Assembly (NCBI GenBank): GCA_039026915.1
Contig: JBCCLJ010000007.1
Location: 3,651-67,650, forward strand
DNA from: Acidobacteriota bacterium
Lineage (GTDB): Bacteria; Acidobacteriota; Thermoanaerobaculia; Multivoradales; Multivoraceae
Direction of reading: 5' to 3'
DNA length: 64,000 nt
In this document: positions 9,840-62,866 of the stretch, piece by piece
Layout of the letters: the number at the start of each line of letters is the position of its first letter
Position numbering within the stretch: position 1 is the first letter of the stretch
The notes under the pieces: generated by a model
Databases searched by the model: none
What the model saw: only the letters and a program-made list of their open reading frames with translations
What the model was told of the DNA's origin: nothing
Translations under genes and position numbers: made by a program

Positions 9840-9957
9840 CGATGGCTCCGTTCTAGGCAACGTTCGCGCTCGGGACAGCGTTCTTCGAGGTGTTTGGCGA
9901 AGCGACTTCGGCGTTTCCTATCACACGGAAGGCCGGTCGTGAGAGCTTCCCTGCACC

Positions 9958-22724: not shown

Positions 22725-22765
22725 GGGCTAAACCTCCAGGGCGTGCTGCCCGGGATCAGAGAACT

Positions 22766-23509: not shown

Positions 23510-23520
23510 GGCGAATGACC

Positions 23521-24090: not shown

Positions 24091-24134
24091 GAAGGTGAAT
24101 CCTTGGGAAGTGCGATGCATGGTTCGGTATCGCT

Positions 24135-25388
24135 TCAGCCGATGTTGCGGAGGTCGACGACGGTCTGCAGAGTCCGGCGACGATGAGCTCGATCGTTCTG
24201 ATCCTGCTCGTTGGTCGGTTCGGCCGGTTCGCTGTAGTCGCGGTTCTCGAGGGTCGTCAGCGGTGCCGACATGTAGCCTGCGTCGGGCCGGTCGGTGCGC
24301 GTCAGCGTGGAGATGCGCGCCGAGAAGAGGCGGTTGGTCGCCCAGCCGGCGGTCGTCAGATCGTCGCCCGGGTCGTTGGCCATCCACTCGTCGGCCGTGA
24401 GGTCGCTCGGGTCCTCGTCGATGTCGCCGTCGTTGTTCAGGTCGATGGCGAGTGCGACCTGGAGATCGAGCACGTTGTCGGCGATATCGACGCGCGTGTT
24501 GGCGTCGTCCGTGGTGTCGATCGGCGTCGTCGTGCTGCTCGGAATCACCGGAAAGAAGGTGTTCGTACCCGGGTAGAATTGTGCCCTCGAGAGCTTGCTG
24601 GAGAGGCCTCCGGTGACCGACTGGTCGTCGCGGATGTAGTAGCGATACTCCTCGACGACGCCCGCGAAACCGACGTTCGTCAGGTTGTTCGGAAAGGTGG
24701 AGCCGGTCGACGACAGCGGAACGTAGTTGCCCGTGTTGATTCCAGCGCCCGTGTTGGCGGTGAAGTTCAGCACGCCCCGAAGGTCTGCCGTTCCGTCGCC
24801 GTTGACGTCGGGGTTCGACCAGGAGGCGCCGGTGATCTCGACCACTCCGTAGATGGCGTCGTTCACCGCGCTGACCAGCATGAGAGCGATCGGCAGATTG
24901 CGGTCGAGCATGTCCTTGAGATCGTCGAGCGGCTGAGGGATGAACATCGACGGGCTCAGGCTGTCGACCTGGAGCGTGCCGGTCTGCGTCGAAGCCGTGT
25001 AGGAGAAGGCCGCCGGATTGGCGGAGTCGATCTGCATGATCGGCGTCGAGAAGACGCCCCGGACCGTCAGAACGTCGGTGTTCTCTGCCACGTCCTGACC
25101 GCCGATCTGAGTGCCGGTCGCCACGTTGTCGGCGATGGCGATCGAGCTGGCGCGGTTGAGTCCTCCGCGGCCCGCCATACGGGTCAGACGTGCAACGGTG
25201 TTCTGCGCTACGCGCTGCGACTGCTGCAGGTCGGCGATTTCCGTCTGCACGCGCGAGACGCGCCCGTTGACGTCGAAGAGAAGGAGAGCGAGAACGAGAA
25301 CTTCCGCCATGATCGCGCTCGCAATGACGAGCTCGACGAGGGTGAAGCCTTCTTCGGAGGCCTGCTGCTGGATCGGTTGTGCGTTCAT
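24135..25388 (-). CDS. pilW: Type IV pilus minor pilin PilW-like
   Basis: I set the start at the ATG at 25388. The prepilin leader is MNAQPIQQQASEEG|FTLVELVIASAIM, with a G-1/F+1 cleavage site and Glu at +5. The mature domain is about 400 aa. Confidence 0.65.
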   Translation of the reverse strand: MNAQPIQQQASEEGFTLVELVIASAIMAEVLVLALLLFDVNGRVSRVQTEIADLQQSQRVAQNTVARLTRMAGRGGLNRASSIAIADNVATGTQIGGQDVAENTDVLTVRGVFSTPIMQIDSANPAAFSYTASTQTGTLQVDSLSPSMFIPQPLDDLKDMLDRNLPIALMLVSAVNDAIYGVVEITGASWSNPDVNGDGTADLRGVLNFTANTGAGINTGNYVPLSSTGSTFPNNLTNVGFAGVVEEYRYYIRDDQSVTGGLSSKLSRAQFYPGTNTFFPVIPSSTTTPIDTTDDANTRVDIADNVLDLQVALAIDLNNDGDIDEDPSDLTADEWMANDPGDDLTTAGWATNRLFSARISTLTRTDRPDAGYMSAPLTTLENRDYSEPAEPTNEQDQNDRAHRRRTLQTVVDLRNIG

Positions 25389-25441
25389 CTTGGCGTTCTC
25401 GGAGTTGTCGTGATTTCGGTCCGGTCGTGCGGTGCCCGTCA

Positions 25442-25999
25442 TCACAGGGCCTTGTACATGCGCAGGGTGACCTGCTTGCCGGGGCTCATGCCCGAGGGGG
25501 GAGCTCCGACCTGGACCTCGATCTCCTTGAGGTGCACGGCCTGCGGATCGGCGCTGGCGTCGAGGAGCTCGGATGCATCCAAGACGCCGTCGGCGAGCGC
25601 GTTCATGCTGAACTGCCGCACCGTGACCGTGCGCTCGAAGGTGTCGATCTCGGTGCTCGGAAAGCTGCTGACGTCGTACCAGCGCTTCGAGTCCTTGGAC
25701 CACTTCTCGTTGCGTACGAGTTCGTTGCCGGCGATCAGTGTCAGGGCCGGGTCATTCGCAGGCAGCTGGATCATGCGCTCGAGCTCGGAGCGGGCGAGGT
25801 TCGTCGCCTCGGTTGCCTGCTTGCCCTGCAGATTGTTGGTGATCGAACGCGTGAACATCGGCAGAATGCCGACGCTGACGATGAGCAGCAGCGCGGCGGC
25901 GATGAGCACCTCGATCAGGGAAAAACCGGAGGGTTCTCGGTCGAAGAGCGGGCTTTCGGAGCGCGGGCGTGTCGGGGATGGAGCGAGCATCAGAACCAC
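25442..25999 (-). CDS. pilV: Type IV pilus minor pilin PilV-like
   Basis: The prepilin N-terminus is ...REPSG|FSLIEVLIAAALLLIVSVG. Start at the GTG at 25999 or the ATG at 25990. It overlaps the upstream fimT-like gene. Confidence 0.65.
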   Translation of the reverse strand: MVLMLAPSPTRPRSESPLFDREPSGFSLIEVLIAAALLLIVSVGILPMFTRSITNNLQGKQATEATNLARSELERMIQLPANDPALTLIAGNELVRNEKWSKDSKRWYDVSSFPSTEIDTFERTVTVRQFSMNALADGVLDASELLDASADPQAVHLKEIEVQVGAPPSGMSPGKQVTLRMYKAL

Positions 26000-26688
26000 T
26001 TCCAGAGGTTGGCGCCCGAGGTCGCGTCCTTGCCGCGCGGATAGAAGCCGCTGGTCCCAGATGCGAAGGGCGGAGTGGGGTAGTACTTGCGAACTTCGAC
26101 GCGCGCCGTGGCGCGAGGCTCGACGCGGATCTCGAAGAAGTTGCCGCGAGCGTCGGCGATACGGAAAGCGCCGGTCTCTCGGACCGATCCATCGGGCTCG
26201 AAGACTGCGACGGGACGGCTCGAGGAGTCCGTATTGAGGCCGTCGGCGATGTCCGTTCCGTTGGGCGCGGCGTCGGCCGGACCCCAGAACTTGATCGAAG
26301 TGGAGTCGTTTCTGCCTTGTGGCAGGCCGCTCTCGGAGACCCGGTAGTCGACGGTCCTGGCGACCGCGGTCGCGTTCGGCTGGTAGAGCAGGCCGGCGTC
26401 GTCGTCGACGTTGGCGAAGGCGAAGAGTCGGTTGTTCGTCGTATCGGCGAGCACGACGACGTCGACGCCTCGGCGGATGGCTTCTTGACGCGCCACCTGG
26501 AGGACGTTGGTCGACTCGCGTAGGGCCGAAGAAACCTTCGAGCGCTCCAGCATGAGCAGCAGGTTCGGGATGCCGACGAGAGCGAGTGTGCCGACGATGA
26601 GGATGACGATGAGGACTTCGATCAGAGTGAAGCCTTCGTCAGGATTCGCGGAGCGCGGCGTGGCGGGAGTGGGCAGGGGCACCTTCAT
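25990..26688 (-). CDS. fimT: FimT/FimU (GspH-like) type IV minor pilin
   Basis: It has the leader MKVPLPTPATPRSANPDEG|FTLIEVLIVILIVGTLALVGIPN with Glu at +5. It is the first gene of the minor-pilin operon. Confidence 0.65.
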   Translation of the reverse strand: MKVPLPTPATPRSANPDEGFTLIEVLIVILIVGTLALVGIPNLLLMLERSKVSSALRESTNVLQVARQEAIRRGVDVVVLADTTNNRLFAFANVDDDAGLLYQPNATAVARTVDYRVSESGLPQGRNDSTSIKFWGPADAAPNGTDIADGLNTDSSSRPVAVFEPDGSVRETGAFRIADARGNFFEIRVEPRATARVEVRKYYPTPPFASGTSGFYPRGKDATSGANLWKWF

Positions 26689-26790: not shown

Positions 26791-28581
26791 TCAGGCGGAC
26801 GATTGCTGCGCGGCATCGGACAGTGAAGTGTCACGATTGGTAACAAATCGGTCATGCGGTAGATGCAGTCGAGCCAGTGCACCGCCCTCGTCGCGGTTCC
26901 TCAGTTGGACCGTTCCGCCGTGCAGCTCGGCGATGCGTCGGCTCAGTGCGAGCCCGAGTCCGACGCCCTGGGCGCTTCCTGAGGCGAACGGGTGGAAGAG
27001 TCGGTCGCGAACGGCGTCGGCGATCCCGGGGCCACGGTCCTCGATCAGGACGTCGAAGCCTTCGTCGACCGCCACGATGCGCACACGAATCGGCTCGTCG
27101 GCGTGCGCGCCCTCGCGTTGCGCGCGCGCTGCGTTGTGCAGAAGGTTGCGCAGGGCTCTCTCGAGCAGCTGGGGATCACCGGAGACCTCGGCGGTGCCGA
27201 TCTTGCTGCGGACGGCGATCGGGACCTTTGCGAGAACCGGATCGGAAGCGGCGCGGTGCACGAGACGCTCGAGGACGACCGGCTCGACGCGCACCGATCC
27301 GGGGCGGGCGAAGCTCAGGAAGTCTTCGACGACTCTCTGCAGGTGGTCGGCTTCGTGGCGCAGTTCGACGAGATCCTCTTGCAGAGCTTGGGCCTCTACC
27401 GTCGCGCTGCGCTCGATCAACGTGAGATAGCCGCGCAAGGAGGCGAGTCCGTTGCGGAGCTCGTGGGCGAGCCCCGCCGTCAGCGCGCCGATCTGCTCGA
27501 GGCTCTCGCTGAGCCGCTCCTCCTCGTTGCGCTTGCGAATCTCGGTGAGATCGGCGAAGAGTCCGAGCCAGCCGCGCACGGCGCCGTCTTCACGGTGCAG
27601 CGGGTGCACGGTGAGTCCGACAGTGCGCTCGCTCGCTCCGGTCAGATCGCATTCACGTCGCTGAATGCCCGAGCCAGAGGCGACCGCCTCCTCGAGCGTC
27701 TGTCGCAGCGGGTTGTCGGCCGGCAGAAGCTCTTCGAGGTTCGTGCCAGGATCGACCTCCCGTTCGATTTCGAGGAGCTCGCGCCCCGCCGGGTTGATCG
27801 AAAGGACTTCACCGCGCGCATCGAGTACGAGCAGCCCGCTCTCGAGTCCGGTGGCAAGCGTGCGCTGCAGAGCTGCGATGTCCGCCTCGAAGGCGGGTGG
27901 GTCGTCTCCGTCGACCGGACGTTCGAGCGCCGTGACGGCGCGCTCGAAGGTCTCGAGCAGCATCTCGACGTCGTCCTTGTCGCTCGGCTCGGTCCCCTGC
28001 AGGCTCTTGGCTCGATCGAGCAAGGCGTCGAGAGGCCGCAGCAGATGACGAAGATAGAGGATGACCAGAACCAGGAGCCCGGCGTTGACGGAGAGCACCA
28101 GAGCGACCAGCAGCGGAAGCGCGCGGGACTGCCCGAGCAGCACCGGTGCTCGGTAGTCGACGCGGACGAAGGTTGGTTCGCTCGGCGTCGTTGCCATGGG
28201 CGAGAGGCCGACGATCGTGCCCGTCGCGCTCAGCGGGCCGATGCCCACGGGCTCCCTCACGTTCGGCAGTGCGAGGGGGGCCGGAGCGCTGCCGATTCCG
28301 ACCTCGACGATGGGCAGCCCCATCTCGTCGATGATCGCGACAGAGTCGGCGCCGAGGAGCATCCGGCTCAGAGTTGCTTCGTCGGGCATGCTCCGACCGA
28401 GTCGCGACGCGATTGCGGCCGCAGTCGAGGCCGCGCGGCTGCGCTCGTCGTCGACCAGGCGGGAGATGCTGGCTCGGTAAGAGAAGAGCGTGAAGGTCGA
28501 CAGGGCGATGAGGCCGAGCAGCGCCGCCGGCAGCAGGATGCTTGCTTCGCGTCGGAATCCGAGCTTGGGCCAGCTGCTCAC
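26791..28581 (-). CDS. Sensor histidine kinase (2 TM helices, PAS, HisKA, HATPase_c). It is a PilS/NtrB-like candidate partner of the sigma-54 regulator.
   Basis: It has two TM segments flanking a periplasmic loop, a PAS region, an H-box LAHELRNGLASLRGY, and N and G boxes (LLHNAARA, DRGPGI, GVGLGLALSRRIAELHGG). Confidence 0.8.
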   Translation of the reverse strand: MSSWPKLGFRREASILLPAALLGLIALSTFTLFSYRASISRLVDDERSRAASTAAAIASRLGRSMPDEATLSRMLLGADSVAIIDEMGLPIVEVGIGSAPAPLALPNVREPVGIGPLSATGTIVGLSPMATTPSEPTFVRVDYRAPVLLGQSRALPLLVALVLSVNAGLLVLVILYLRHLLRPLDALLDRAKSLQGTEPSDKDDVEMLLETFERAVTALERPVDGDDPPAFEADIAALQRTLATGLESGLLVLDARGEVLSINPAGRELLEIEREVDPGTNLEELLPADNPLRQTLEEAVASGSGIQRRECDLTGASERTVGLTVHPLHREDGAVRGWLGLFADLTEIRKRNEEERLSESLEQIGALTAGLAHELRNGLASLRGYLTLIERSATVEAQALQEDLVELRHEADHLQRVVEDFLSFARPGSVRVEPVVLERLVHRAASDPVLAKVPIAVRSKIGTAEVSGDPQLLERALRNLLHNAARAQREGAHADEPIRVRIVAVDEGFDVLIEDRGPGIADAVRDRLFHPFASGSAQGVGLGLALSRRIAELHGGTVQLRNRDEGGALARLHLPHDRFVTNRDTSLSDAAQQSSA

Positions 28582-28591
28582 GACACGCGAC

Positions 28592-29377
28592 TCAGAGCAG
28601 TTGCAGGTAGCTGCTGACCAGCTGCGGTCCGACGAAGAGCGCGATCAGGCTGGCGACGGCGAGAAAGACACCGAAGGGCAACTTCGATTGGAGGTCGCCG
28701 CTGCCGCGCGCGAGCAGCGCCGCGCCGACGATCGATCCCAGGATCGACGATAGAAAGAGGGTCACGACGACGCCTCCGACTCCGAGGAACGAGCCGATCG
28801 CAGCCAGCATTTTGGGATCGCCCAGGCCCATACCCATCTGACGGCGGATCAGGTACCAGACGCCGATCAGCAGCAGCAGCGATCCCGCTCCGAGCACGAT
28901 GCCGAAGAGCGAGCCGAGCGGCGTCACGAGAGGGGACCAGAAGGAGAGAAGGAGGCCGAGCACCATTCCTGGGTAGGTGAGTCTGTCCGGGAGGATGAAG
29001 TGCTCCGCGTCGATCAGGGCCAGCGACAGCATGAGAAAAACGAAGAGCATGGCGATCGGGGTGGCCAGGGTGAATCCGAAGGTCAGAAAGCAAGCGCCGA
29101 AAAGGACGCCCGTCAGCGCTTCCACCGCCGGATAACGCGCAGAGATTCCGAGGCCGCATTGGCGGCAGCGACCCTTCAGCAACAGGTAGCTCAGCACCGG
29201 AATGTTGTCGCGGGCCAGAACCGGCTCGCCGCAGCCCGGGCAGCGCGAGCGCGGTCGCACCGTCGACATGCCGCGCGGCAGTCGATAGACGACGACGTTC
29301 AGGTAGCTTCCGACGACCAGTCCGACGACGATGGCGTAGGCCATCGCGATCCAGAAAAGCTGAGGACTCGTGCTCAA
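28592..29377 (-). CDS. pilD: Prepilin peptidase (A24 family) PilD/GspO
   Basis: It has a Cys-tetrad zinc motif (CPGCGEPV...CRQCG) and multiple TM helices, including a helix with the GDPKMLAAIG motif. Confidence 0.85.
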   Translation of the reverse strand: MSTSPQLFWIAMAYAIVVGLVVGSYLNVVVYRLPRGMSTVRPRSRCPGCGEPVLARDNIPVLSYLLLKGRCRQCGLGISARYPAVEALTGVLFGACFLTFGFTLATPIAMLFVFLMLSLALIDAEHFILPDRLTYPGMVLGLLLSFWSPLVTPLGSLFGIVLGAGSLLLLIGVWYLIRRQMGMGLGDPKMLAAIGSFLGVGGVVVTLFLSSILGSIVGAALLARGSGDLQSKLPFGVFLAVASLIALFVGPQLVSSYLQLL

Positions 29378-29388
29378 GAGACTCGGTC

Positions 29389-30870
29389 TCAGCGTCGAGA
29401 CTCGGTGAGCGAAGCAAGGATGTGTCGCATGACGTCGACGCCGGCGTCGAAGTCGTCGACTCGGATGTACTCGTCCGGTCCGTGAATGCCCCGGCTATCG
29501 GCCCCTGCGATCGCGAAGGGAGAGAAACCGTAGGCCTCGACGCCGCGCGCTCGGAAGTAGCGACTGTCCGTCGTGCCGGGGATGAGAATCGGCAGGATCG
29601 GAAGCTCGTGGTGTTCCGGCAGAGCGCGAATCGCCCTCTGGAGGTCCTCATAGCCGCCCGCTTCGAGGGTCGGCTCGGCGACCTGAGGCGAACTGACGGT
29701 CACCTCGACGTCGACGTTGGGTCCGACCGCCTCTCGTACGTTCGCGAGGAAGGCCTCGCCGTCGGTGTCGGGCAGCAGGCGCACGTCGACGAGCGCCGAT
29801 GCGTTCGCCGGCACGACGTTCACCGAGCTGTCCCCGTTGTCGATGCGGGTCACCTGGACGGTGTCGAGGAACGCGGTCTGCATTCCGGGCAGCAGAACGC
29901 TGTAGAGACCGCCCTGCTGATCCAGCTCACGCAGCCGATCTTCGATCGCCTGGCGATCCTCTTGTCCGAAGAGAGCCCGGAACTTGGCGCCGTGAAGGGG
30001 TGCGAGTGCCTGGAAGTAGAGATGAGCCGCGGGAGAGACGTGGATCTCACGGCCGCTCGAAGCGAGCAGCTGCGTGAGACCGCGGGTGAGCGTATGGGTC
30101 GCACTGTCCGGATTGAAGCCCGAGCCGTGGCCGCCGCGGCCGCGTGCTGTCAGCCGGAGCCAGAGCGGTCGTTTCTGCGCGAACTCGATGCCCCACCAGA
30201 GCATGCGTCCGTTGACGGTCTTGTTCAGTCCCGCCTCGTTGAGCACGAGATCGGCATCTGCGAAGAGCTCGGGGTACTGGTCCAGGACGAACGCCGCGCC
30301 CTGACCGCCGCCGGCCTCCTCGTCAGCGACGGCGAGATAGATGACGTTGCGGTCGACCGGACCGCCGGCGTCGAGCAGAGTGAGCAGCGCCTCGAGGTGC
30401 GCGATGCCAAGGCTCTTGCTGTCGATGGCGCCGCGACCCCAGATCTTGCCGTCGGCAATGTCTCCGGAGAAGGCGCCGCGCGTCCAGCCGCTGCCTGCGG
30501 GTACGACGTCGATGTGATGGAGCAGGACGATCGACGGTGCGGGCTGCCGCTGAGCTTCGACCTTCGCGTACAGGCTCGTCCGGCCGTCGGGGGTGACGAG
30601 CAGCTGCGTCGTCACGTCGCGTGCGTGAAGGAGGGAGGCGAGGTAGTGAGCGCCCGCGGCTTCAAGGCCTGGAGGGTTCGTCGTATCGATGCGCAGATAC
30701 GCCTGCAGGCGCGAGCGTGGGTCCGGGGCGGCGGTCGAGCCGTCGTCACCTCCGGTGGGCTGACCCAGCAGAAGAGCTGCGCAGAGACAGAGAAGCGTAG
30801 AGAGCCGCCGCCGACGAGTCGAGCCGGGCCACGGCGCTTTCCGGCGGACGCTGTAGGGAGAGCTCTTCAT
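29389..30870 (-). CDS. Secreted M20-family metallopeptidase (ArgE/DapE/CPG2-like), paralog 1
   Basis: It has a signal peptide and M20 motifs (LLHHIDVVPA, GRGAIDSKSLG, ADEEAGG). It is paralogous to the 31806..33248 product, sharing LQAYLRIDTTNPPG against LQALLRIDTTEQTG. Confidence 0.7.
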   Translation of the reverse strand: MKSSPYSVRRKAPWPGSTRRRRLSTLLCLCAALLLGQPTGGDDGSTAAPDPRSRLQAYLRIDTTNPPGLEAAGAHYLASLLHARDVTTQLLVTPDGRTSLYAKVEAQRQPAPSIVLLHHIDVVPAGSGWTRGAFSGDIADGKIWGRGAIDSKSLGIAHLEALLTLLDAGGPVDRNVIYLAVADEEAGGGQGAAFVLDQYPELFADADLVLNEAGLNKTVNGRMLWWGIEFAQKRPLWLRLTARGRGGHGSGFNPDSATHTLTRGLTQLLASSGREIHVSPAAHLYFQALAPLHGAKFRALFGQEDRQAIEDRLRELDQQGGLYSVLLPGMQTAFLDTVQVTRIDNGDSSVNVVPANASALVDVRLLPDTDGEAFLANVREAVGPNVDVEVTVSSPQVAEPTLEAGGYEDLQRAIRALPEHHELPILPILIPGTTDSRYFRARGVEAYGFSPFAIAGADSRGIHGPDEYIRVDDFDAGVDVMRHILASLTESRR

Positions 30871-30936
30871 CGCGGGGCACCTTCGGTGCGCTGGTTTCAG
30901 TCTATGAGAGCGATGGCTGCCGTGGTCGAGGTCGGC

Positions 30937-30971
30937 AGAAAAGAAAAAGGCGCCGTGCTCAGCACGGCGCC
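30937..30971 (-). terminator. Intrinsic (Rho-independent) terminator downstream of the pilin gene
   Basis: A perfect 10-bp GC-rich inverted repeat (GGCGCCGTGC tca GCACGGCGCC) reads on the minus strand as a hairpin followed by a TTTTTCTTTTCT tract. It lies about 30 nt after the pilin stop at 31001. Coordinates are +/-2 nt. Confidence 0.6.
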
Positions 30972-31000
30972 CATCGCATCGGATTGGATCTCAGTCTGAC

Positions 31001-31564
31001 TTAGGAGCCGGCGCCCGAGGCGGCCGCGGAACCGCTGGGGTAGCGGACGAAGTAGCCGTCAGCCCAGACGATGTCCTGGTCGTAGTCGGTGGCGATGAAC
31101 GGACCCGGCGTGTAGGTGCCGGCGGAAGCCGTCAGGTCGCGGCCGAGGCTGCGGATGGCCATGACGTTCGAGCCGGAGAGGAGGTTGGCGTCGGTGCCGA
31201 TGAAGCCGAAGCCGTAGTTGTTGCCCCAGCCGTCGACGCGGGGAACTTCCTGCATGTAGAAGAAGGTGTCCGACGGGCGCAGGAGAGCCTGCAGGTCAGA
31301 GTGGTCGTAGCTGCTCGCGAGCCAGGTGTAGGTGGCGGCGGAGCCAGCGGCCGAGGAGCCGGCGGCGTCGGTGAGCCAGGACATCCAGGCGGTACCGATG
31401 GTGCGGACGTCCGCGACCGAGCGCTTCTGCTTGGCCTTCTGCAGGGCGTCGATGAGGTTGGGGATGAGGATTGCGGCGATGATGCCGATGATAGCGACGA
31501 CGATGAGGAGCTCGATGAGGGTGAAACCACCCTGGCTCTTCCGGTTCCGGATTCGATTCATCAT
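31001..31564 (-). CDS. pilA: Type IV pilin (PilA-like major pilin candidate). It lacks cysteines and has a Ser/Ala/Gly-rich C-terminus ending in Ser.
   Basis: I set the start at the ATG ATG at 31564 with a strong AAGGAGAAG Shine-Dalgarno. The leader is MMNRIRNRKSQGG|FTLIELLIVVAIIGIIAAILIPNL with Glu at +5. It has its own sigma-54-like promoter and a terminator. The track ORF start at 31666 is too far upstream. Confidence 0.7.
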   Translation of the reverse strand: MMNRIRNRKSQGGFTLIELLIVVAIIGIIAAILIPNLIDALQKAKQKRSVADVRTIGTAWMSWLTDAAGSSAAGSAATYTWLASSYDHSDLQALLRPSDTFFYMQEVPRVDGWGNNYGFGFIGTDANLLSGSNVMAIRSLGRDLTASAGTYTPGPFIATDYDQDIVWADGYFVRYPSGSAAASGAGS

Positions 31565-31622
31565 TTGGGTCTTCTCCTTGGTTAAGTCATGGCCCGGTCG
31601 GGCTTGATTCGAGGAGCTAGAA

Positions 31623-31638
31623 AGCAGGATGCGTGCCA
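31623..31638 (-). promoter_or_regulatory. Sigma-54 (-24/-12) promoter candidate for the pilin gene
   Basis: The minus-strand sequence TGGCACGcatcCTGCT matches the consensus TGGCACG-N4-TTGCW, with GG and GC at the correct spacing. It lies about 60 nt upstream of the pilin ATG. Coordinates are +/-1 nt. Confidence 0.5.
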
Positions 31639-31805
31639 GCCCTGCCAAGGGTCGTATTCCCTTCAAAAACTAGTAAATGCTAAGGCTACCCAAGTTCGTC
31701 TGACAATATGTGACACCAACTCCTGTCACTGGATGAGGTTTGCAGCGGGAAAGGACTCCCCGCACCGCGCGGCTGATCCGTTGCGGTGCACCCGGTCTCG
31801 ACGCA

Positions 31806-33248
31806 TCAGCGCTTCAGGAGCGCGTCGACGAGCTCGACGTAGAGATCGACGCCGCCGACGAAGGCGGGGAGTGCGATGCGCTCGTCTGGACCGTTGATCG
31901 TCGCCGCATCGGTCGCCAGGGCCAGGAACGGAGAGAAGCCGTAGCTCGGCACGCCCGCACCGCGAAAGAAACGTGAGTCGTTGGCGTAGAGCGTCAGAAA
32001 GAAGGGGCCCGTTGCTTCCGTCTCGAAGCGTTCTCTCAGTAGCTCCTGGATGCCCTCATAGGCTGGATGATCGAGCGGACTGGACGCGGCAGCCCCGAAC
32101 GGACCTTCGACGGTCATGCCGAGTCCGTGCGTCATCCACTCGGGCAGCAGTCGCTTCATCGCTCGATTCAGATCCTGCCCTGGACGCAGATGGACCATGA
32201 GACGCATGCGGAAGCCCTGGGTGCCGGGGTCCTTCTCGATCGGAAAGGCGTGGACCTCGTCGCGAAAGAGCGCCTGCATGTACGCCGGCAGGAAGAGGAA
32301 GTCTTCGATGTTCTCCAGAGCCGAGTCAGGATCCGAGAGGATTCGTGCGAAGGAGGTCTCTTCGCGTGACGGCGCGTAGGAGCGCAGGAATTCCCGTGCC
32401 GGCTCCGTCAGAGAGAGGTCGTCGATGAGGTGTCCGCGGGTCGAGAGGTCCTCGTAGAGATCCTCCAGGCGCTGCCGGGTGCGGGTACAGACCCAGACCT
32501 CGGCGAAGTGCTTCTGGGCGAACGCCGTCCCCCAGTACTTGATCGTCTCGCGGTCCGTTGCCTCGACGACGCCGCCTTCGGTCAAGAGCGCCCAGGTGCG
32601 ATCGACGAGCTCCGGGTACATCCGCACGATCCACTGGGCTCCCAGATGGCTTCCCGTTTCTTCGCTGCTCGTCGCGAGCAGGATCAGAGAGCGCTCCGGG
32701 ATCTCGCCCGTCGTTTCGATCTTCTCTCGAACCCGAAGAAAGGCCTCGAGCTGTGCCGACGCCACCGACTTCATGTCGAAGGCGCCGCGTCCGTAGATCC
32801 ACGGCCCCTCGATCTCGCCGCTGAAGGGACCGAACTCCCAACGGTCGGGTTGGCGGATCGGGTCGGTGTCGAGATGGCTGTGCAGAACGAGGGCCTCTGA
32901 AGACTGTCCTTCGATGATCGCCCAGAAGTTGGCGCGGTCTTCGATCAGAGCCTCGACCGTCGGTTCGATGCCGGCCTCGCGCACGACGTCGGCGAGGTAG
33001 TTGGCGGCCTGAAGCTCGCTGCCCGTCTGCTCGGTGGTATCGATGCGCAGGAGCGCCTGCAGGTGTTGGACGCTGCGCTCGGCGGCAAAGTCGAAGGTGC
33101 TCCACTCGGTGTCGATGCCGAGATTCAGTGCGCGCTGAACCCACGGGCTGAGCAGCAGAAAGAGGCCGGTCGTGACGGCGAAGCTGCCCCAGAGCCCGAA
33201 ACGGGCTGAGGATCTCAGAGTCTTCTGCACGGGTGTTCGCTCGGCCAT
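31806..33248 (-). CDS. Secreted/membrane-anchored M20-family metallopeptidase, paralog 2
   Basis: I set the start at the ATG at 33248 (MAERTPVQKTLRSSARFGLWGSFAVTTGLFLLLSP), which gives a signal-anchor. M20 motifs are present (LHSHLDTDP, GRGAFDMKSVASAQLEAF, SSEETGS). The upstream part of the track ORF is low-complexity Arg-rich junk. Confidence 0.7.
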   Translation of the reverse strand: MAERTPVQKTLRSSARFGLWGSFAVTTGLFLLLSPWVQRALNLGIDTEWSTFDFAAERSVQHLQALLRIDTTEQTGSELQAANYLADVVREAGIEPTVEALIEDRANFWAIIEGQSSEALVLHSHLDTDPIRQPDRWEFGPFSGEIEGPWIYGRGAFDMKSVASAQLEAFLRVREKIETTGEIPERSLILLATSSEETGSHLGAQWIVRMYPELVDRTWALLTEGGVVEATDRETIKYWGTAFAQKHFAEVWVCTRTRQRLEDLYEDLSTRGHLIDDLSLTEPAREFLRSYAPSREETSFARILSDPDSALENIEDFLFLPAYMQALFRDEVHAFPIEKDPGTQGFRMRLMVHLRPGQDLNRAMKRLLPEWMTHGLGMTVEGPFGAAASSPLDHPAYEGIQELLRERFETEATGPFFLTLYANDSRFFRGAGVPSYGFSPFLALATDAATINGPDERIALPAFVGGVDLYVELVDALLKR

Positions 33249-33317: not shown

Positions 33318-34916
33318 ATGAGGGTGACGAAGGAGAGCCTGGTGCGGTCCTGGCTGACCGGGGATGCACTCATCCCCCTGTCGGTCGCCGTCGTTCTCTG
33401 CGTCGGTTTCCTCGCCGCGGAGCGCTCTGTCCTCGGCGAGTTCGGCTTCCCGCTCGACGACGCCTGGATGCACCTGCAGTACGCGCGCAGTCTGGCGACG
33501 GGCGACGGCTTCAGCTTCCAGGGCGACGGGACCGGAGCGGGGGCGGCCGCACCTCTGTGGACGGCCATGCTGGCTCCGGGCGCCTGGGCGACGCCCGTCG
33601 GCGTCTTGTGGGCGAAGGCGCTCGGCATCGCGCTGCACCTTCTGGGAGTTGCCGTCCTGCTGAGTCTGGCGTCGCTCTGGGGTCTCGGTCGTTGGGCGTC
33701 ACTGCTGGCCGTCACTCTCTATCTACTGACGCGATGGACGCTCTGGTCGGCGCTTTCGGGAATGGAGATCTCGCTCTTCGTCCTCCTCTGTCTGCTGGGC
33801 GTGCGCCAGCACGTCCTCGACGTGCAGGCGTCGGCAGAGCGCTCCCGCTTTCCCTGGTCGACGCTCTGGCTGTCGCTGGCGACCCTGGCGCGTCCGGAGG
33901 GTCTGCTCCTCATCGTGCTGTGTTGGGCGGAGAGGTTGCTGAGCCTGAGCCGGCAGGGAGAGCAGAGCTCGATCGGCCTGCGCTCGACGCCCAACCGGCT
34001 GGGGCTTCACGCCGGACTTGCTCTGCTGCTTCTGACGCCGACGGCGCTCTACAACCTCGGCACCTCGGGCAGCGCACTGCCGATGGGGCTGGCCGCGACG
34101 TCGGACACTTCGCTGGGCCTGCCGAGGCTGAGAGATCTTTGGGAGATGGGCCTCGTCCTCTTCCCGGCACAGCCCTGGCTGACGCTCCTCCTAGGTGCCG
34201 GCGTCGTGGCGGCGCTGCGGACGCCGGAACGATCCCTGGTGCCCGCCGCGTGGCCGATCCTGCTGCCGATCGTCTATTCGGTGCTCGGCGGTGGCCTCCA
34301 TCAGGTGCACCACGGCCGCTACCTCTTCCCTCTCTTTCCCTTTTTCTGCCTGCTGGGCGGCCGGGCGCTGGCAGAGCTCGCGGCCGTCATGGCAGAGCGC
34401 CGGTTGTTCGGCATCCGGCTCCGCCACGCCGTTGCCGCCCTGCTGCTGATCACGGCCGTCGGTTCCTTGCGCGACGGACTCGATCACTATCTCGGCAACG
34501 TCACCGACGTCACCGACTCGGACGTGGCCATGGCGCGGTGGGCAGCGGCCAACCTGCCGCGCGACGCCGTGCTGGCCGTGCAGGACGTCGGCGCCTTCGG
34601 CTATCTGGCGCCCCAGCGTCTCGTCGACATGGGCGGCATCGTGACGCCCGAGATCCTGCCCTACCTTCGCGGTGAGCTGCGCGGCGCCCATCCGAGCGGC
34701 CTCGAAGGCTGGGCGACGTTCCTGCAGCAGCGGGACGTCGATTTCGTCGTGCTCTTCCCGGCGTCCTTTCGCGGTGGACTGCGCGACATCGACGCGGTCC
34801 TGCCCGGGGCCCGCATGGTGCATCGAGCAACGCTCGAGAACAACATCACGATGGCAGGGCCGGATCTCGTCGTGCTCGCCACGCCCTGGGGCCGGGGCGG
34901 CGGCAATCGTCCCTAG
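33318..34916 (+). CDS. Polytopic membrane protein, putative GT-C-fold glycosyltransferase (ArnT/PMT-like architecture); paralog of 36643..38253
   Basis: It has about 11 TM helices. An acidic motif in the first extracytoplasmic loop (FPLDDAWMHLQYARSLATGDG) resembles the DD/DE motifs of GT-C enzymes. It has a C-terminal soluble domain (NVTDVTDSDVAMARWAAANLP...). The family assignment is inferred, not proven. Confidence 0.5.
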   Translation: MRVTKESLVRSWLTGDALIPLSVAVVLCVGFLAAERSVLGEFGFPLDDAWMHLQYARSLATGDGFSFQGDGTGAGAAAPLWTAMLAPGAWATPVGVLWAKALGIALHLLGVAVLLSLASLWGLGRWASLLAVTLYLLTRWTLWSALSGMEISLFVLLCLLGVRQHVLDVQASAERSRFPWSTLWLSLATLARPEGLLLIVLCWAERLLSLSRQGEQSSIGLRSTPNRLGLHAGLALLLLTPTALYNLGTSGSALPMGLAATSDTSLGLPRLRDLWEMGLVLFPAQPWLTLLLGAGVVAALRTPERSLVPAAWPILLPIVYSVLGGGLHQVHHGRYLFPLFPFFCLLGGRALAELAAVMAERRLFGIRLRHAVAALLLITAVGSLRDGLDHYLGNVTDVTDSDVAMARWAAANLPRDAVLAVQDVGAFGYLAPQRLVDMGGIVTPEILPYLRGELRGAHPSGLEGWATFLQQRDVDFVVLFPASFRGGLRDIDAVLPGARMVHRATLENNITMAGPDLVVLATPWGRGGGNRP

Positions 34917-34999: not shown

Positions 35000-36541
35000 C
35001 TACGGCCCTTTAGCAGGGGACGGACAGCCGTCGAAAGCGGCGGTGTCCTGCACGGGCCGCAGAGGCGTGCCCTGTGGGTTGTCATAGGTCCTCACCGCTC
35101 CCGTCACCGTGTCGGTGACCGTGATGCGGACTTCGACGTCTGTCAGGCCGGCGGCGAACACCCAGAAGCGCTGAGAGAACGAGCAGGCGTCGAGGACCTT
35201 GACGATCACCTCGACGTTGTCGGCCTCGAAGAACCAGAAGGTCGCCGTGTCCGTGGTCAGTTCGACGCTCCGCCCAGCGCCGGAGTCCCCCGAGCGCGTC
35301 CGATAGGTGACGTCGACCCGGAAGCGCTCGCTCGAGAGGCAGGCCGCCGTAGCGCTCGACGAGCAGCCTTCCGTCAACGCCGGTGTCGTCGCCGAGGCCA
35401 CGTTGCTGGGCGCGGATTCTCCCAGGCCGTTGCGAGCGCGCACGCGAAACCGATGATCGCTCGCAGCACGCAGCCCGGACACCGTAGCCTCGGACGCGTC
35501 GAGGCCTTCCGAGGCGGCCTCGAGCCAGGGGCCGCCGTTCGTCTGGACCTCGACGAGGAAGCCGTTCTCGTTGGAGCTCGCGTCCGTCCAGCGCAGTGCG
35601 ACGGTCGTCGCCGAGACGGCGGTCGCCGTCAGTCCGACGGGAGGGTCCGGCGGACCGAGCTCCTCGACTTCGGACGGGCCGGCGAGGAGCCAGACGGCGG
35701 TGCGGCGGGCGAAATCGAGCTGAAAGTCCGGCACGTGGTCCTCCTCTCGGAGGGTCCACAGCTCCGTCTCACCGCCGGGAGGGCAGTCTTGAAGGAACTG
35801 CAGGACCCGCGTCTCCTGGCCGGCGACCTCGGCCGAAAGGTCCATGCGGTCGCCGCGCTCGGTGACGCCGGTACAGCCGTGCAGGAGCGCTCTCTGTTCG
35901 ACGGACTCGAAGGCTCCCGGGTAGGGGCCGCCCCCGGGCACGATGCCGCCCTCGTAGAGCACGACGAGGTCGCGATCGCCGTGGATCTGCAGAGAGCGCA
36001 CGGGATGCGTCGCCTGGCAGTCCTGCGGCCGGTTGAAGTTCGCGCCGGCCAGGCTGGCGATGGCGCGCACGACATCCCCGTGCTCGCAGGCCATGCGGTT
36101 GGCCATGAAGCCGCCGTTGGAGTGACCGAAGAGGGCGGCGTGAGAGATGCGCCAGCGGGCCGCGACCTCCTCGTAGATGCGCCTCAGGTACTCCGCGTCG
36201 CCTGGTGACTGCCCGTAGAACTCGCAGCAGGCGGGAGTCGCGTCCCAATAGGTCTGTCCCACCGGGTTGCGGGTGCCGGTCGGCGCGACGAGGAAGAAAC
36301 CGAGCTCGTCGACGAAGCGTTGAAAGCCGAGGTAGAGCTCGGCTTCGTCACCGTTCGAGGTGAAGCCGTGCAGGTTGTAGAGGAGCGGCCACGCCCGATC
36401 CGGCGTGTAGTCGTCCGGAATGAAGACGACGAGGTTGCCCCGGCCGTAGTCGACGAGCACCGTGTCGAAAGCAGCGAGATGGCTGGGCGCGAGCAGGAGC
36501 AGTGCCGTGATGAGGAGAGCCGCTGGACGAAGCAGGTTCAT
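35000..36541 (-). CDS. Secreted esterase of the PHB-depolymerase/feruloyl-esterase type alpha/beta-hydrolase family, fused to an Fn3 domain and a Cys-containing C-terminal beta domain
   Basis: It has a signal peptide, the LYNLHGFTSNG motif and the nucleophile elbow GHSNGGFM. Its Fn3-like segment is PPVGLTATAVSATTVALRWTDASSNENGFLVEVQ. The C-terminal domain reads ...FWFFEADNVEVIVKVLDACSFSQRFWVFAAGLTDVEVRITVTD.... Confidence 0.65.
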   Translation of the reverse strand: MNLLRPAALLITALLLLAPSHLAAFDTVLVDYGRGNLVVFIPDDYTPDRAWPLLYNLHGFTSNGDEAELYLGFQRFVDELGFFLVAPTGTRNPVGQTYWDATPACCEFYGQSPGDAEYLRRIYEEVAARWRISHAALFGHSNGGFMANRMACEHGDVVRAIASLAGANFNRPQDCQATHPVRSLQIHGDRDLVVLYEGGIVPGGGPYPGAFESVEQRALLHGCTGVTERGDRMDLSAEVAGQETRVLQFLQDCPPGGETELWTLREEDHVPDFQLDFARRTAVWLLAGPSEVEELGPPDPPVGLTATAVSATTVALRWTDASSNENGFLVEVQTNGGPWLEAASEGLDASEATVSGLRAASDHRFRVRARNGLGESAPSNVASATTPALTEGCSSSATAACLSSERFRVDVTYRTRSGDSGAGRSVELTTDTATFWFFEADNVEVIVKVLDACSFSQRFWVFAAGLTDVEVRITVTDTVTGAVRTYDNPQGTPLRPVQDTAAFDGCPSPAKGP

Positions 36542-36642
36542 CGAGAGGCAGTCTAGCCGGCTGGATCGGCGTTCGTGTGCCCTGTGCTGCAGGGCCTGCT
36601 ACCATTTCGACGACGGCCAGCGCCGCCCGCTCTCATCCCCTT

Positions 36643-38253
36643 ATGTCCATTGAAATGAAGACTTACGGCGACCGCCGGTGGCTGTATTCGGCGCTGGCCG
36701 TCGCTGCGCTCTCGACGATCCTTCACTTCGGAGCCGAGCTCTATCTGCTGGAGGAGCCGGCCTTCCCGCTGGACGACTCGTGGATCCACCTTCAATTCGC
36801 GCGCAATCTGGCGGCGGGTGAGGGAATGAGCTTTCATCCCGGACGAGCGGTCGCCGGCTCGACGGCGCCGCTTTGGACGGGGCTGCTGGCTCTCGGAGCG
36901 TGGTCTCCGAGCCTGGCGATCGTCTGGAGCAAGCTCCTGGGAATCGTCTTTCATCTGATCGCGACTGCGGCGCTCTTCTCCGCGGCTCGGAGCTGGGGCC
37001 TCTCGGCTCTGTGGAGTGGTCTGGCGCTCCTTCTTTTCGTCTTGACCGATTGGGTGCAGTGGTCGGCGCTCTCCGGGATGGAGATCTCGCTCTTCCTGGC
37101 GCTCAGCACCGTCGGTCTGGCCGTGCATCTGCGCTGGGTGGGCGCGGATCCGGCCGAGCGCGGCACCCTGCCTTGGGCAACGCTCTGGTTCGCTCTGGCG
37201 GCTCTGGCGCGTCCTGAGGGCCTGCTGCTCCTCGTTCTCTCCTGGGCGGACGCTGCGCTGCGCTGGGAGACCGATCAGGACGATCTGCGGCCTCGACTGC
37301 AGGTGGGCCTGCCGTGGGCCCTGCGTCAGGCACTCTGCGCCACGATCGTGCTGGCGCCCGTCGGTCTCTACTACCTTTCGATCAGCGGCTCTCCACTGCC
37401 GACCACCTTCGGCATCAAATCGGCCGGCGATGGCGGGGTCGGGTTGCCCAATCTGCGCGACCTGTGGTTGATGGTTCGAGTCGTCTTTCAGCCGCAGCCG
37501 TGGATGGTCCTCTTCCTCGGCGCCGGCCTCGTCGCTTCGTTGCGCCAGGCACGGCGCGGGCTGCTGCCGGTTCTCTGGCTCTTCGCCCTGCCGATCGCGT
37601 TCTCCGTCCTGGCCGGCGGTGCGCGGCCCAATCTCGGCAACTTCGGCCGCTACCTCTTCCCGCTCTTTCCGGTCCTGCTCCTCGTTGGCTGTAGGGGGCT
37701 GGACGCGGCGACGCAGAGGCTGCCGGAGACGCTGCGCTTCGGTGCTGTCCGTCTGCGGCTGCGCCCGCTTTTGGCGCTCGCCGTGTTGGCACCGACGGCG
37801 CTGGGAGTCCTGCCCGGCCTGCAGCGCTACCTCACCAACGTCGCCAACGTCACGGACTCGGACGTCGCCGCGGGCCGTTGGATTGCGGAGAATCTGCCTC
37901 CGGACGCGCGCCTCGCCGTCCAGGACATCGGGGCGATCGCCTACTTCGCTCCGAACCCTCTCGTCGACATGGTCGGGATCGTCAATCCTGAGATCCTGCC
38001 CTACGTCCGCGGCGACAAGATGGGCGACCATCCGACACGCCTCGGCGGCTGGGCCGACTTTCTGCGCCAGTCCTCGGTCGACTACCTCGTGCTCTTCCCG
38101 CGGTCCTACGGCGGACTCGCCGCGATCGGCGAAGTGATGCCGGGGCTCGTTCCCGTGCACAGCATCCGGCTCGAACGCAACATCACCATGGCGGCCGACG
38201 AACTTCTGGTGCTGGCGGTCAGCCGCTCGCGCGAGGCACCAGGTAGAGAATGA
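36643..38253 (+). CDS. Polytopic membrane protein, putative GT-C-fold glycosyltransferase; paralog of 33318..34916
   Basis: FPLDDSWIHLQFARNLAAGEG, NVANVTDSDVAAGRWIAENLP and the shared TM topology match its paralog. I set the start at the ATG at 36643 (MSIEMKTYGDRRW). The track ORF start at 36577 is less likely. Confidence 0.5.
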   Translation: MSIEMKTYGDRRWLYSALAVAALSTILHFGAELYLLEEPAFPLDDSWIHLQFARNLAAGEGMSFHPGRAVAGSTAPLWTGLLALGAWSPSLAIVWSKLLGIVFHLIATAALFSAARSWGLSALWSGLALLLFVLTDWVQWSALSGMEISLFLALSTVGLAVHLRWVGADPAERGTLPWATLWFALAALARPEGLLLLVLSWADAALRWETDQDDLRPRLQVGLPWALRQALCATIVLAPVGLYYLSISGSPLPTTFGIKSAGDGGVGLPNLRDLWLMVRVVFQPQPWMVLFLGAGLVASLRQARRGLLPVLWLFALPIAFSVLAGGARPNLGNFGRYLFPLFPVLLLVGCRGLDAATQRLPETLRFGAVRLRLRPLLALAVLAPTALGVLPGLQRYLTNVANVTDSDVAAGRWIAENLPPDARLAVQDIGAIAYFAPNPLVDMVGIVNPEILPYVRGDKMGDHPTRLGGWADFLRQSSVDYLVLFPRSYGGLAAIGEVMPGLVPVHSIRLERNITMAADELLVLAVSRSREAPGRE

Positions 38254-39100
38254 GCAGGACCGCGACCCCCCAGAGGGCCAGGTTGAGCAGGAACGGCAGA
38301 TCCGAGAGCATCGACTCCGTCGGGTTGCGCTCGTCGTTCACCTGGTAGGTCAGATAGAGATAGCGGAAGATGCCGAAGAGCACGAAGGGCACCGTGTACA
38401 CCAGCGTGGCGCCGCCGAACTTGGCGGTCGTCTCCGGCGCGGTCGTCCACAGCGCGTACGACATCAGCGTCGACGCGGTGACGACGTTCATCATCTGGTC
38501 GAGAAAGGCCGGGCTGTAGTGGCCGAGCACTTCACGCTGGGCGGCCGCCGACTCGTCGAGCAGGACGAGCTCGTGACGCCGTTTGGAGAAGGTCAGGAAG
38601 AGCGCCATGAAGATGGTGCACAGCAGCAGCCAGGACGACACTTCGACGTCGATCGCCATGCCGCCGGCAAGGACCCTGAGTACGTACCCCATGCCGACGA
38701 TCAGGACGTCGATGATGACCACCTTCTTGAGCCCCGTCGAGTACAGGAGGTTGATCACCAGATAGACGGCCGCGACGATCAGAAAGTCGAGGCCGAGATA
38801 CCAGGATCCCGCGAGTGCGGTGAGCGCGACGACGATCATCGCGACGACGGCGGTGCCGACCTTGAGCTCGCCGGAGGCGATCGGACGGAACTTCTTCAGC
38901 GGATGCAGGCGGTCGCGCTCGCGATCCATGATGTCGTTCAGCAGGTAGATCGAGCTCGCCAGCGCGCAGAAGACGACGAAGGCGATTCCGGCCTGCAGGA
39001 GCATCTGCGGATCGCGCAGAGACTGCGCGAAGATCAGCGGGGGCAGAACGAAGAGGTTCTTCACCCACTGCTTGGGGCGCATGGTTCGGAGAAGCGGCAC
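38219..39100 (-). CDS. UbiA-family polyprenyl-phosphate phosphoribosyltransferase (decaprenyl-phosphate 5-phosphoribosyltransferase, Rv3806c/UbiA-like)
   Basis: MRPKQWVKNLFVLPPLIFA and the Asp-rich motif NDIMDRERDRLHPLKKFRPIASG match DPPR synthases, and it has about 8 TM helices. It is 293 aa. Confidence 0.7.
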   Translation of the reverse strand: MPLLRTMRPKQWVKNLFVLPPLIFAQSLRDPQMLLQAGIAFVVFCALASSIYLLNDIMDRERDRLHPLKKFRPIASGELKVGTAVVAMIVVALTALAGSWYLGLDFLIVAAVYLVINLLYSTGLKKVVIIDVLIVGMGYVLRVLAGGMAIDVEVSSWLLLCTIFMALFLTFSKRRHELVLLDESAAAQREVLGHYSPAFLDQMMNVVTASTLMSYALWTTAPETTAKFGGATLVYTVPFVLFGIFRYLYLTYQVNDERNPTESMLSDLPFLLNLALWGVAVLLILYLVPRASG

Positions 39101-53823: not shown

Positions 53824-53827
53824 CCGA

Positions 53828-55039: not shown

Positions 55040-55112
55040 GTCTCGCTCGTGGACGAGATGCGGCGTGCCACCGTAGGCTTCAGTACGGGCCGAGCGCCCG
55101 GGAGCCGCAACG

Positions 55113-57681: not shown

Positions 57682-57683
57682 TC

Positions 57684-59829: not shown

Positions 59830-59847
59830 ATGACGCATTTGCAGACA

Positions 59848-62831: not shown

Positions 62832-62866
62832 CGGCGCCCTCTCGGCGAACGAATGGAGAGCTTTCG

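Follow-up and report, generated by a model that had tools for sequence, protein, structure and literature searches.

Type IV pilins are cleaved by the prepilin peptidase PilD, N-methylated and sometimes glycosylated, and to our knowledge the accepted scheme of pilin maturation has no metallopeptidase step. Here we describe a locus in a 64,000-nucleotide stretch of DNA from a metagenome-assembled genome (MAG) of the Acidobacteriota (assembly GCA_039026915.1, contig JBCCLJ010000007.1, positions 3,651 to 67,650 of the forward strand; hereafter the window) in which two paralogous genes of the M20 metallopeptidase family, M20-1 and M20-2, flank a type IV pilin gene at 31001-31564. Our tentative reading, which we hold at somewhat less than even weight, is that the M20 pair is a conserved accessory module of the pilin/PilD locus in Thermoanaerobaculia-like Acidobacteriota that is tied to GT-C glycosylation and to periplasmic pilin maturation. 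A full-text literature search returned no paper linking M20 enzymes to pilins, to PilD or to the pili of this clade, and it appears to be new that two exported M20 paralogs, one intact and the other degenerate, are found with pilin, PilD and GT-C genes in a conserved arrangement.

Accessory genes beside a major pilin gene are known from Pseudomonas aeruginosa, where tfpO, tfpW/tfpX, tfpY and tfpZ adjoin the pilin gene and modify the pilin or help its assembly. Among their products is TfpW, a GT-C enzyme encoded beside pilA that adds D-arabinofuranose to the pilin and that relies on a UbiA-type DprE1/DprE2 donor pathway (10.1101/2020.04.19.049825). The window appears comparable in that GT-C-like genes and an equivalog of decaprenyl-phosphate phosphoribosyltransferase (DPPR synthase) likewise lie next to a pilin gene, and it differs in that none of the P. 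aeruginosa accessory genes encodes a metallopeptidase. A second described system is YfhO/CsbB, which glycosylates lipoteichoic acid in Firmicutes and in which a GT2 enzyme makes a lipid-linked sugar that a YfhO-family GT-C enzyme transfers outside the membrane (PMC5836110). This system is like one related locus, L072, where the M20 and pilin genes have YfhO and GT2 genes on their flanks, but it has no M20 component, its target is teichoic acid and its hosts are Gram-positive bacteria.

With regard to the enzymes themselves, the M20A group (carboxypeptidase G2, DapE, ArgE, aminoacylase-1 and Sso-CP2) has in common with the window pair a two-domain fold composed of catalytic and lid/dimerisation domains, and the His/Asp/Glu/Glu/His ligands, catalytic Glu, lid His and lid Arg of this group are the same in M20-1. 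The differences are that the window pair resides in a pilus/GT-C locus rather than in one for amino-acid biosynthesis, and that M20-2 is without three of the catalytic features. An initial statement that M20 enzymes are normally cytoplasmic was too strong, as carboxypeptidase G2, the reference structure of the family, is periplasmic and has a 22-residue leader (PMC5082436). Two diverged M20 paralogs encoded by neighbouring genes also have a precedent in Escherichia coli, where AbgA and AbgB form one heteromeric enzyme, p-aminobenzoyl-glutamate hydrolase (PMC5082436). One AbgAB subunit has imperfect metal ligands, and this enzyme could be a model for a possible M20-1/M20-2 complex, with the difference that AbgAB is cytoplasmic and lacks a leader sequence. 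What the window pair offers for this type of heteromery is co-occurrence (38/39 loci), with a counter-example at locus L087.

The genes at the center of this analysis are as follows:

26791-28581, minus strand: PAS sensor histidine kinase (PilS-like), 10 nt downstream of PilD, a position kept in six looked-up loci
28592-29377, minus strand: prepilin peptidase PilD (A24; Pfam A24_N_bact and Peptidase_A24)
29389-30870, minus strand: M20-1, predicted exported M20 metallohydrolase, 493 aa (Pfam Peptidase_M20 and M20_dimer)
30948-30972, minus strand: terminator-like hairpin, 11-bp stem with 9 G-C pairs and a T-run (consensus match only)
31001-31564, minus strand: major prepilin, GspG-like (Pfam N_methyl); its tail peptide at the C-terminal end reads ...FVRYPSGSAAASGAGS
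31806-33248, minus strand: M20-2, putatively membrane-anchored divergent paralog, 480 aa (Pfam M20, no M20_dimer match)

That two paralogous M20 genes bracket the pilin gene, as the preliminary description had it, is borne out by Pfam Peptidase_M20 matches for both M20-1 (E 1.5e-29, 103.8 bits) and M20-2 (E 1.5e-20, 74.5 bits; cutoff 24.6 in each case) and by the N_methyl motif of the gene in the middle. Paralogy is established by an alignment over the full length of the two proteins with 30% identity (E 9e-37), and the shared segments quoted earlier, LQAYLRIDTTNPPG/LQALLRIDTTEQTG and GRGAIDSKSLG/GRGAFDMKSVAS, are indeed present in both. Identical proteins of 493 and 480 aa are found in the NCBI annotation of an Acidobacteriota MAG (P0001 and P0121); M20-2 is read here from its MAERTP start, upstream of which the mechanical open reading frame (ORF) extends to 33638. 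AlphaFold2 models of both proteins match M20 structures with Foldseek E-values of 1e-26 or lower, in agreement with a place in peptidase family M20 (PF01546, MEROPS clan MH), and the lid of both models holds an extra helical insert of ~55 residues. The PDB structures retrieved by Foldseek for both proteins are DapE, Sso-CP2, carnosinases, ArgE and carboxypeptidase G2, none of them more than 21% identical. For neither protein does an NCBIfam equivalog or subfamily model reach its cutoff; the best is PRK07906, with 229 against 382. We specifically rejected a DapE or ArgE identity, for which the best models reach at most 111 bits against cutoffs of 217-381 and with which the N-terminal export signals predicted on both proteins also disagree. 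The two proteins are thus new, uncharacterised members of a well-known family, without assignment to a characterised subfamily.

M20-1 has the features of a complete enzyme. It carries the PF07687 lid/dimerisation domain (E 2.3e-10) that defines the dimeric M20A subfamily, and its AlphaFold2 model has an M20 fold with a predicted local distance difference test (pLDDT) score of 89.9. We took a census of active-site residues by aligning seven ortholog pairs and then the six-frame ORFs of 86 related loci plus the window. In this census all M20-1-type proteins (88/88) have the first His, bridging Asp, Glu-Glu pair, fourth-ligand Glu and C-terminal His, together with the site motifs HHID, GRGAIDSK, ADEE, LNEAG and GIHGPDE of a canonical di-metal M20 site, and 86/88 have the lid His motif (GRGGHGSG). 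In profile alignments to solved structures the lid His aligns with the GH of 3ct9, the lid Arg (DVRLLPD) with the Arg of Haemophilus influenzae DapE (FNLRY), 7uoi and 2pok, and the C-terminal His with the DapE His (TIHKVNE) in 3ic1 and 7uoi; the profile was also aligned to ArgE-like and ACY1 structures. The N-termini of M20-1 and its orthologs contain a basic stretch, 10-27 uncharged hydrophobic residues and small-residue cleavage-type sites (ACA↓AE, GARA↓NE), from which a classical n-h-c, Sec-type signal peptide is predicted. A lipoprotein or Tat export route, suggested by RRRRLSTLLCLC, was rejected on the grounds that the orthologs show only ordinary Sec-type n-h-c regions without a conserved lipobox or twin-arginine consensus. 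M20-1 is therefore predicted, from its sequence, to be soluble in the periplasm and catalytically complete as a di-zinc exopeptidase or amidohydrolase, and it appears to show every feature of those M20 enzymes, such as carboxypeptidases and aminoacylases, that recognise a free alpha-carboxylate.

M20-2 has a different active-site state. His, Asp, Glu-Glu and Glu are retained in 49-50/50 orthologs of the census, but the fifth ligand is His in only 1/50, with Asp in 23, Ala in 13, Asn in 6, Gly in 4, Ser in 2 and Thr in 1; the window protein has Asn at this position. The lid His motif is deleted in 50/50 orthologs, with 10 residues missing in the window protein, which also has His in place of the lid Arg. 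A conserved His stands in for the lid Arg in 47/50 members of a second set, composed of database homologs. This second set, whose origin overlaps with that of the first, repeats the ligand census and again has the fifth His in 1/50. Going by what is known of DapE, we take the residues kept in M20-2 to be the complete first metal site and the general base, and the lost His to belong to the second site. Because the fifth-ligand His, the lid His motif and the lid Arg are all lost, M20-2 is not a canonical di-zinc M20 enzyme. The expectation that the metal ligands are conserved in both paralogs thus holds in full for M20-1 and only in part for M20-2. A PF07687 match is also absent from the window M20-2 and from its 120 best homologs, which sets it apart from the M20A dimeric subfamily at the profile level. 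Its AlphaFold2 model (pLDDT 91.1) nevertheless depicts a two-domain M20 protein with the lid domain fold retained, preceded by one long N-terminal helix at residues 6-44. The idea that M20-2 is a decaying pseudogene was discarded: it has 899 homologs at E<=1e-10 and a mean column identity of 48%, its fold is predicted with confidence, and its catalytic Glu and four ligands are nearly invariant.

Signal sequences had been assigned to both proteins, and both are indeed predicted to be exported. The classical signal peptide is confined to M20-1, however, and the N-terminus of M20-2 looks like a signal anchor that stays uncleaved instead of a signal peptide that is removed. Specifically, the N-termini of M20-2 orthologs share a conserved R..AAR.ALY.S..LT that is followed by ~20 hydrophobic residues, and the sequence conservation inside this hydrophobic segment favours a retained membrane anchor. 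In a neighbour-joining tree M20-2 is monophyletic and groups with upstream M20 copies of loci L062 (5399-6877) and L072 (7644-9203) that flank a pilin as M20-2 does, and that have kept the fifth His with the lid His motif already gone. The paralogs may thus go back to an old duplication, after which features were lost step by step, with the L062 and L072 copies looking like intermediates, with the proviso that long-branch artefacts are possible in this tree.

We addressed conservation of the locus by scanning one genome per GTDB species with the M20-1 alignment as the query, which returned at least 527 relatives. The best 80 of 527 loci were annotated with hidden Markov models (HMMs), for which the window and the first six loci supplied the sequences, and were divided into a close group with 44-71% identity (about 54 loci) and a distant group with 36-43% identity; the denominators below count only loci with enough flanking sequence. 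In the close group M20-2, or a second M20 copy, is found within 4 kb upstream of M20-1 in 38/39 loci, a prepilin within 2.5 kb of M20-1 in 42/45, PilD within 9 kb downstream in 34/39 and a GT-C-like or UbiA gene upstream in 32/35, counts that are not phylogenetically independent because they are drawn from one broad Acidobacteriota lineage. The corresponding counts in the distant group are 2/20, 7/21, 0/17 and 0/19. All six looked-up contigs, which carry M20-1 orthologs of 50-73% identity, have the order UbiA or GT-C-like gene, M20-2, prepilin, M20-1, PilD and PAS kinase. A lack of conserved synteny with pilins in related genomes, which the preliminary description named as the observation that would count against its proposal, is thus not what we see. 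Linkage of these genes across genomes is established, and the M20 pair has the attributes of pilin accessory genes in that it is beside the major pilin in a conserved position. Note that close orthologs have diverged to ~44-50% identity and that their flanks are rearranged, and that the association of the M20 pair with pilin/PilD and GT-C genes persists all the same; the synteny of M20 and pilin genes is not due to chance. The junctions are also tight, with the M20-1 stop 11 nt from the PilD start in the window and 4-12 nt from it, or overlapping it by 4 nt, in orthologs. Such tight or overlapping junctions argue for co-expression.

Two arrangements of the locus can be distinguished. In the window-type layout 1-3 pilin genes lie between the paralogs, often with another pilin after M20-1. 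In a second layout, found in Multivorans- and Holophagales-labelled MAGs, M20-2, M20-1, PilD and a minor-pilin-like gene are consecutive and there is no pilin between the paralogs, indicating that the M20 pair stays with PilD. The gene after PilD in this layout was considered as a major pilin and rejected, its product being minor-pilin-like with a mature length of ~130 aa. When approached from the M20-2 side, 2/3 long contigs show the window layout. The third, locus L087 (8001-11220, on a 4.7-Mb contig), has kept GT-C, M20-2, pilin, PilD, kinase and PilY1 genes, while M20-1 is absent from this locus, where a 258-bp gap separates pilin and PilD. The most distant relatives of M20-1 stand alone.

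The pilin has the leader MMNRIRNRKSQGG followed by FTLIELL, a prepilin N_methyl motif with E 2.8e-9, and matches to the NCBIfam GspG/PilA N-terminal models. Its C-terminus consists of a conserved DIVWADGYFVRYP and then the tail SGSAAASGAGS. In orthologous pilins the motif DIVWADG(F/Y)FV(R)(W/Y)P is strongly conserved, and the C-terminus that comes after it is variable and often rich in Ser/Thr/Gly/Ala. A comparison of ortholog C-termini for a shared processed end found tails of 0 to ~15 residues past the conserved motif with no common terminal residue. The hairpin at 30948-30972 (minus strand) directly follows the pilin stop codon and precedes the M20-1 start. This strong hairpin suggests that the pilin gene is transcribed at a high level as a unit of its own, and that read-through reaches the M20-1, PilD and kinase genes. 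Seven loci (L009, L011, L038, L040, L043, L045 and L057) have 2-3 near-identical major pilins in tandem between M20-2 and M20-1, with the C-terminal 34 residues identical, which suggests recent gene amplification or gene conversion.

On its other side, the M20 pair adjoins genes for putative glycosyltransferases:

33318-34916, plus strand: polytopic GT-C-like membrane protein, 532 aa (weak NCBIfam match)
35000-36541, minus strand: secreted-looking esterase/alpha-beta hydrolase with a fibronectin type III domain and a C-terminal domain without a family match
36577-38253, plus strand: second GT-C-like paralog (alignment to 33318-34916)
38219-39100, minus strand: UbiA-family decaprenyl-phosphate phosphoribosyltransferase (NCBIfam NF008977 equivalog)
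39138-41531, 41483-43900 and 43840-46311, plus strand: three paralogous YfhO-like membrane proteins of ~800 aa (own HMM)

The GT-C-like gene at 33318-34916 is transcribed divergently from M20-2 across a 70-bp spacer, and a GT-C-like gene takes this position in 22/35 close loci. Its product has a weak NCBIfam LA3751 glycosyltransferase match, its ortholog at L088 a faint PMT_2 match, and the profile of the family returns only AftB from the PDB (E 0.02), with Pfam matches below threshold. The protein encoded at 36577-38253 is 48% identical to it and has a weak beta-arabinofuranosyltransferase match. The UbiA gene at 38219-39100 scores 306.5 bits with NF008977 (cutoff 234), and its position upstream of the M20 pair is conserved; it is predicted from sequence to make a lipid-linked pentose donor. 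DPPR synthase catalyses the first step of the mycobacterial-type D-arabinofuranose donor pathway. DprE1 and DprE2 were not seen among the window ORFs that were scanned against Pfam, and for this reason the sugar could be ribose- or arabinose-derived. The three YfhO-like proteins encoded at 39138-46311 score 956-1318 bits with our own HMM and below threshold with Pfam YfhO (E 0.011), and their C-terminus is 29% identical (E 1e-9) to a Pfam-positive YfhO protein of L072. The window thus has five GT-C-like genes and a DPPR synthase beside the pilin. The esterase gene at 35000-36541 (minus strand) is wedged between the two GT-C-like paralogs.

Association with YfhO-type genes extends beyond the close group. 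Specifically, a YfhO-family GT-C gene (Pfam E 1e-12) directly follows the M20 gene in 17/23 loci of distant relatives, many of which are without a prepilin, and in L065 (10016-13263) the two genes overlap by 4 nt. The six exceptions to this adjacency are MAGs of the Myxococcales, Vicinamibacterales, K189A and Gammaproteobacteria. In L072 (4692-13638) there is a second YfhO gene together with a GT2 gene. Among the close loci, 24/49 have 1-4 YfhO-like genes within 4 kb downstream of M20-1, located between the second pilin and PilD where both occur. The deeper conserved partner of the M20 clade is thus a GT-C/YfhO-type glycosyltransferase rather than the pilin, and the M20/GT-C pairing of the distant relatives seems to be undescribed. 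Taken together, the function of YfhO and the precedent of TfpW place the M20 pair in what looks like a pilin-glycosylation neighbourhood.

The preliminary description had put forward the hypothesis that the exported M20 proteins process the pilin C-terminus or a glycan or peptide substituent of it. We infer the enzymatic activity, the substrate and any physical complex of the pair from the observations above, with periplasmic pilin maturation in step with glycosylation as the most likely job. M20-1, expressed together with or co-transcribed with PilD, would act in the periplasm, and an enzyme of its type would require a free alpha-carboxylate next to the scissile amide. In the pilin the sole free alpha-carboxylate would be its C-terminus, and an amino-acid-bearing glycan substituent would be the alternative substrate. 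One option is that M20-1 trims the variable pilin C-terminal tail after the conserved W/Y-P motif, a specific version that takes perhaps half of the weight we give to the general reading, and another is that it removes an amino-acid or acyl group from a pilin-linked substituent. M20-2 would be tethered to the inner membrane by its N-terminal helix and may be either a mono-metal enzyme of altered specificity or mainly a non-catalytic partner. M20-1 and M20-2 may also form one heteromeric enzyme, as AbgA and AbgB do. The Acidobacteriota are a major and little-studied phylum of soil and sediment, and dozens of their divergent genomes keep the pair linked to pilin, PilD and GT-C genes, which suggests that their pilus biogenesis or pilin glycosylation involves an accessory activity as yet undescribed. 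An enzyme with a degenerate paralog is also a natural system for studying repurposed M20 active sites, and a functional GT-C link would be the first M20 role in extracytoplasmic glycoconjugate assembly.

A further proposal for M20-2, which we regard as a long shot, draws on the nicastrin/presenilin complex (gamma-secretase), in which a GxGD intramembrane aspartyl protease is paired with a single-pass protein whose ectodomain has a clan-MH aminopeptidase fold with an impaired active site. PilD is a bacterial GxGD protease and M20-2 would be a single-pass clan-MH protein with a degraded site. By analogy, M20-2 could be a membrane-anchored 'half-enzyme', the nicastrin counterpart, serving as periplasmic substrate receptor or gatekeeper for PilD, for the GT-C transferase or for both, with M20-1 carrying out the trimming. 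If true, gatekeeper and trimming enzyme would define a previously unknown multi-step pilin maturation consisting of leader cleavage, glycosylation and then C-terminal or substituent trimming. Unlike nicastrin, M20-2 keeps most of its catalytic residues and is anchored at the N-terminus, and the likeness is weakened further in that M20-1 rather than M20-2 abuts PilD and in that the M20 clade goes with GT-C genes more closely than with PilD.

Several observations weigh against a role of the M20 pair in pilin maturation. The M20 clade is tied more consistently to GT-C genes than to pilin genes, with a prepilin adjacent in just 7/21 distant loci, and the real M20 substrate could be another glycoconjugate. 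Many orthologous pilins stop at, or a few residues past, W-P-Q-K, and there is little tail to trim. Because M20-1 is missing from the L087 locus, it is dispensable there and an obligate heterodimer is not general. Substrate specificity is not readable from fold and sequence searches, because the only neighbours that come back are generic M20 proteins of at most 21% identity. Finally, the link between the M20 enzymes and the pilin is drawn from gene context rather than from experiment or direct computation, and export is read from features of the N-termini rather than from a trained predictor. The first of these observations leads to an account in which the pair is a GT-C pathway component unrelated to the pilin, acting on some other periplasmic glycoconjugate or its lipid-linked donor, perhaps taking off an amino-acid or acyl decoration, and was joined by pilin and PilD secondarily. 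The M20-then-YfhO order is the most widespread pairing and occurs without a prepilin, in L072 and L088 the module has GT2, Wzx-like, sulfatase-family and Asn-synthase-like genes nearby, and the window itself has five GT-C-like genes with a DPPR synthase. We still consider this account unlikely, given that the close-group paralogs bracket the major pilin and abut PilD in ~90% of genomes, that the pair remains with PilD even where the major pilin is elsewhere, and that we know of no M20 enzyme that acts on glycans or lipid-linked sugars.

The M20 proteins could also be nutritional secreted or periplasmic peptidases, either as cargo of a machine like the type IV pilus (T4P) or a type II secretion system (T2SS) or as genes co-regulated with the pilus through the PilS-like kinase. 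Substrates of T2SS and T4P machines are often encoded beside the machinery, the predicted M20-1 signal peptide is a classical one, the pilin resembles the T2SS pseudopilin GspG, and M20-1 belongs to a large wider family, with 4362 proteins at E<=1e-10, whose most distant members stand alone. A catalytically degenerate M20-2 with a probable membrane anchor would be odd for a scavenger, however, the locus has T4aP-type PilW, PilX and PilY1 rather than T2SS minor pseudopilins, and GT-C adjacency or overlap in 17/23 distant loci is unexpected for such peptidases, all of which makes this explanation quite unlikely in our estimation. Inheritance of a neighbourhood without shared function, with gene order simply kept within one lineage, would be in line with nearly all syntenic loci coming from one class-level Acidobacteriota MAG group; this we judge to be very unlikely, as the module is intact among orthologs at 44-50% identity whose flanks are rearranged (two layouts, 1-3 pilins, 0-4 YfhO genes) and as its tight or overlapping junctions argue for co-expression. 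There is only a slim chance that the M20 proteins are cell-wall remodelling enzymes that trim peptidoglycan stem peptides locally for pilus assembly. Trans-envelope machines often carry dedicated wall-remodelling enzymes, and M20 relatives such as DapE handle diaminopimelate derivatives, but the M20 genes sit with pilin, PilD and GT-C genes rather than with the secretin and alignment genes at 53-62 kb, their NCBIfam DapE/ArgE equivalog scores are far under the cutoffs, and no precedent for an M20 peptidoglycan hydrolase was found.

The remaining pilus genes of the window (G+C ~66%) lie on both sides of the M20 and GT-C genes, with those at 18501-26688 forming a minor-pilin/tip module:

18501-22724, minus strand: PilY1 (Pfam T4P_PilY1)
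23521-24387, minus strand: PilX (Pfam PilX_N)
24135-25703, minus strand: PilW (Pfam PilW)
25990-26688, minus strand: GspH/FimU-like minor pilin (Pfam GspH)
53023-63316, plus strand: second pilus gene block (profile matches)

The block at 53023-63316 (plus strand) codes for a small Secretin_N protein, a T2SSF protein, a T2SSE ATPase with an MshEN domain, a PilN-like protein, two small unassigned proteins, an 834-aa secretin that has TPR and cohesin-like regions, and a further prepilin. Its T2SSF platform protein, T2SSE/MshEN ATPase, PilN and secretin genes are at 53.8-62.3 kb, ~20 kb from the M20 pair. By Pfam the window as a whole has a prepilin with a G↓F-x-x-x-E leader, an A24 peptidase, minor pilins with PilY1, an ATPase, a platform protein and a secretin, which marks it as a type IV pilus locus. 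The prepilin/PilD/minor-pilin block together with the machinery block at 53.8-62.3 kb thus make up a complete T4P system. Envelope and lipid housekeeping genes at 46214-51866 and 8277-9860 (biotin carboxylase, carboxyltransferase, lipid A acyltransferase, LpxK and Kdo transferase) flank the pilus region, and locus L087 repeats the biotin carboxylase and acyltransferase neighbours seen in the window.

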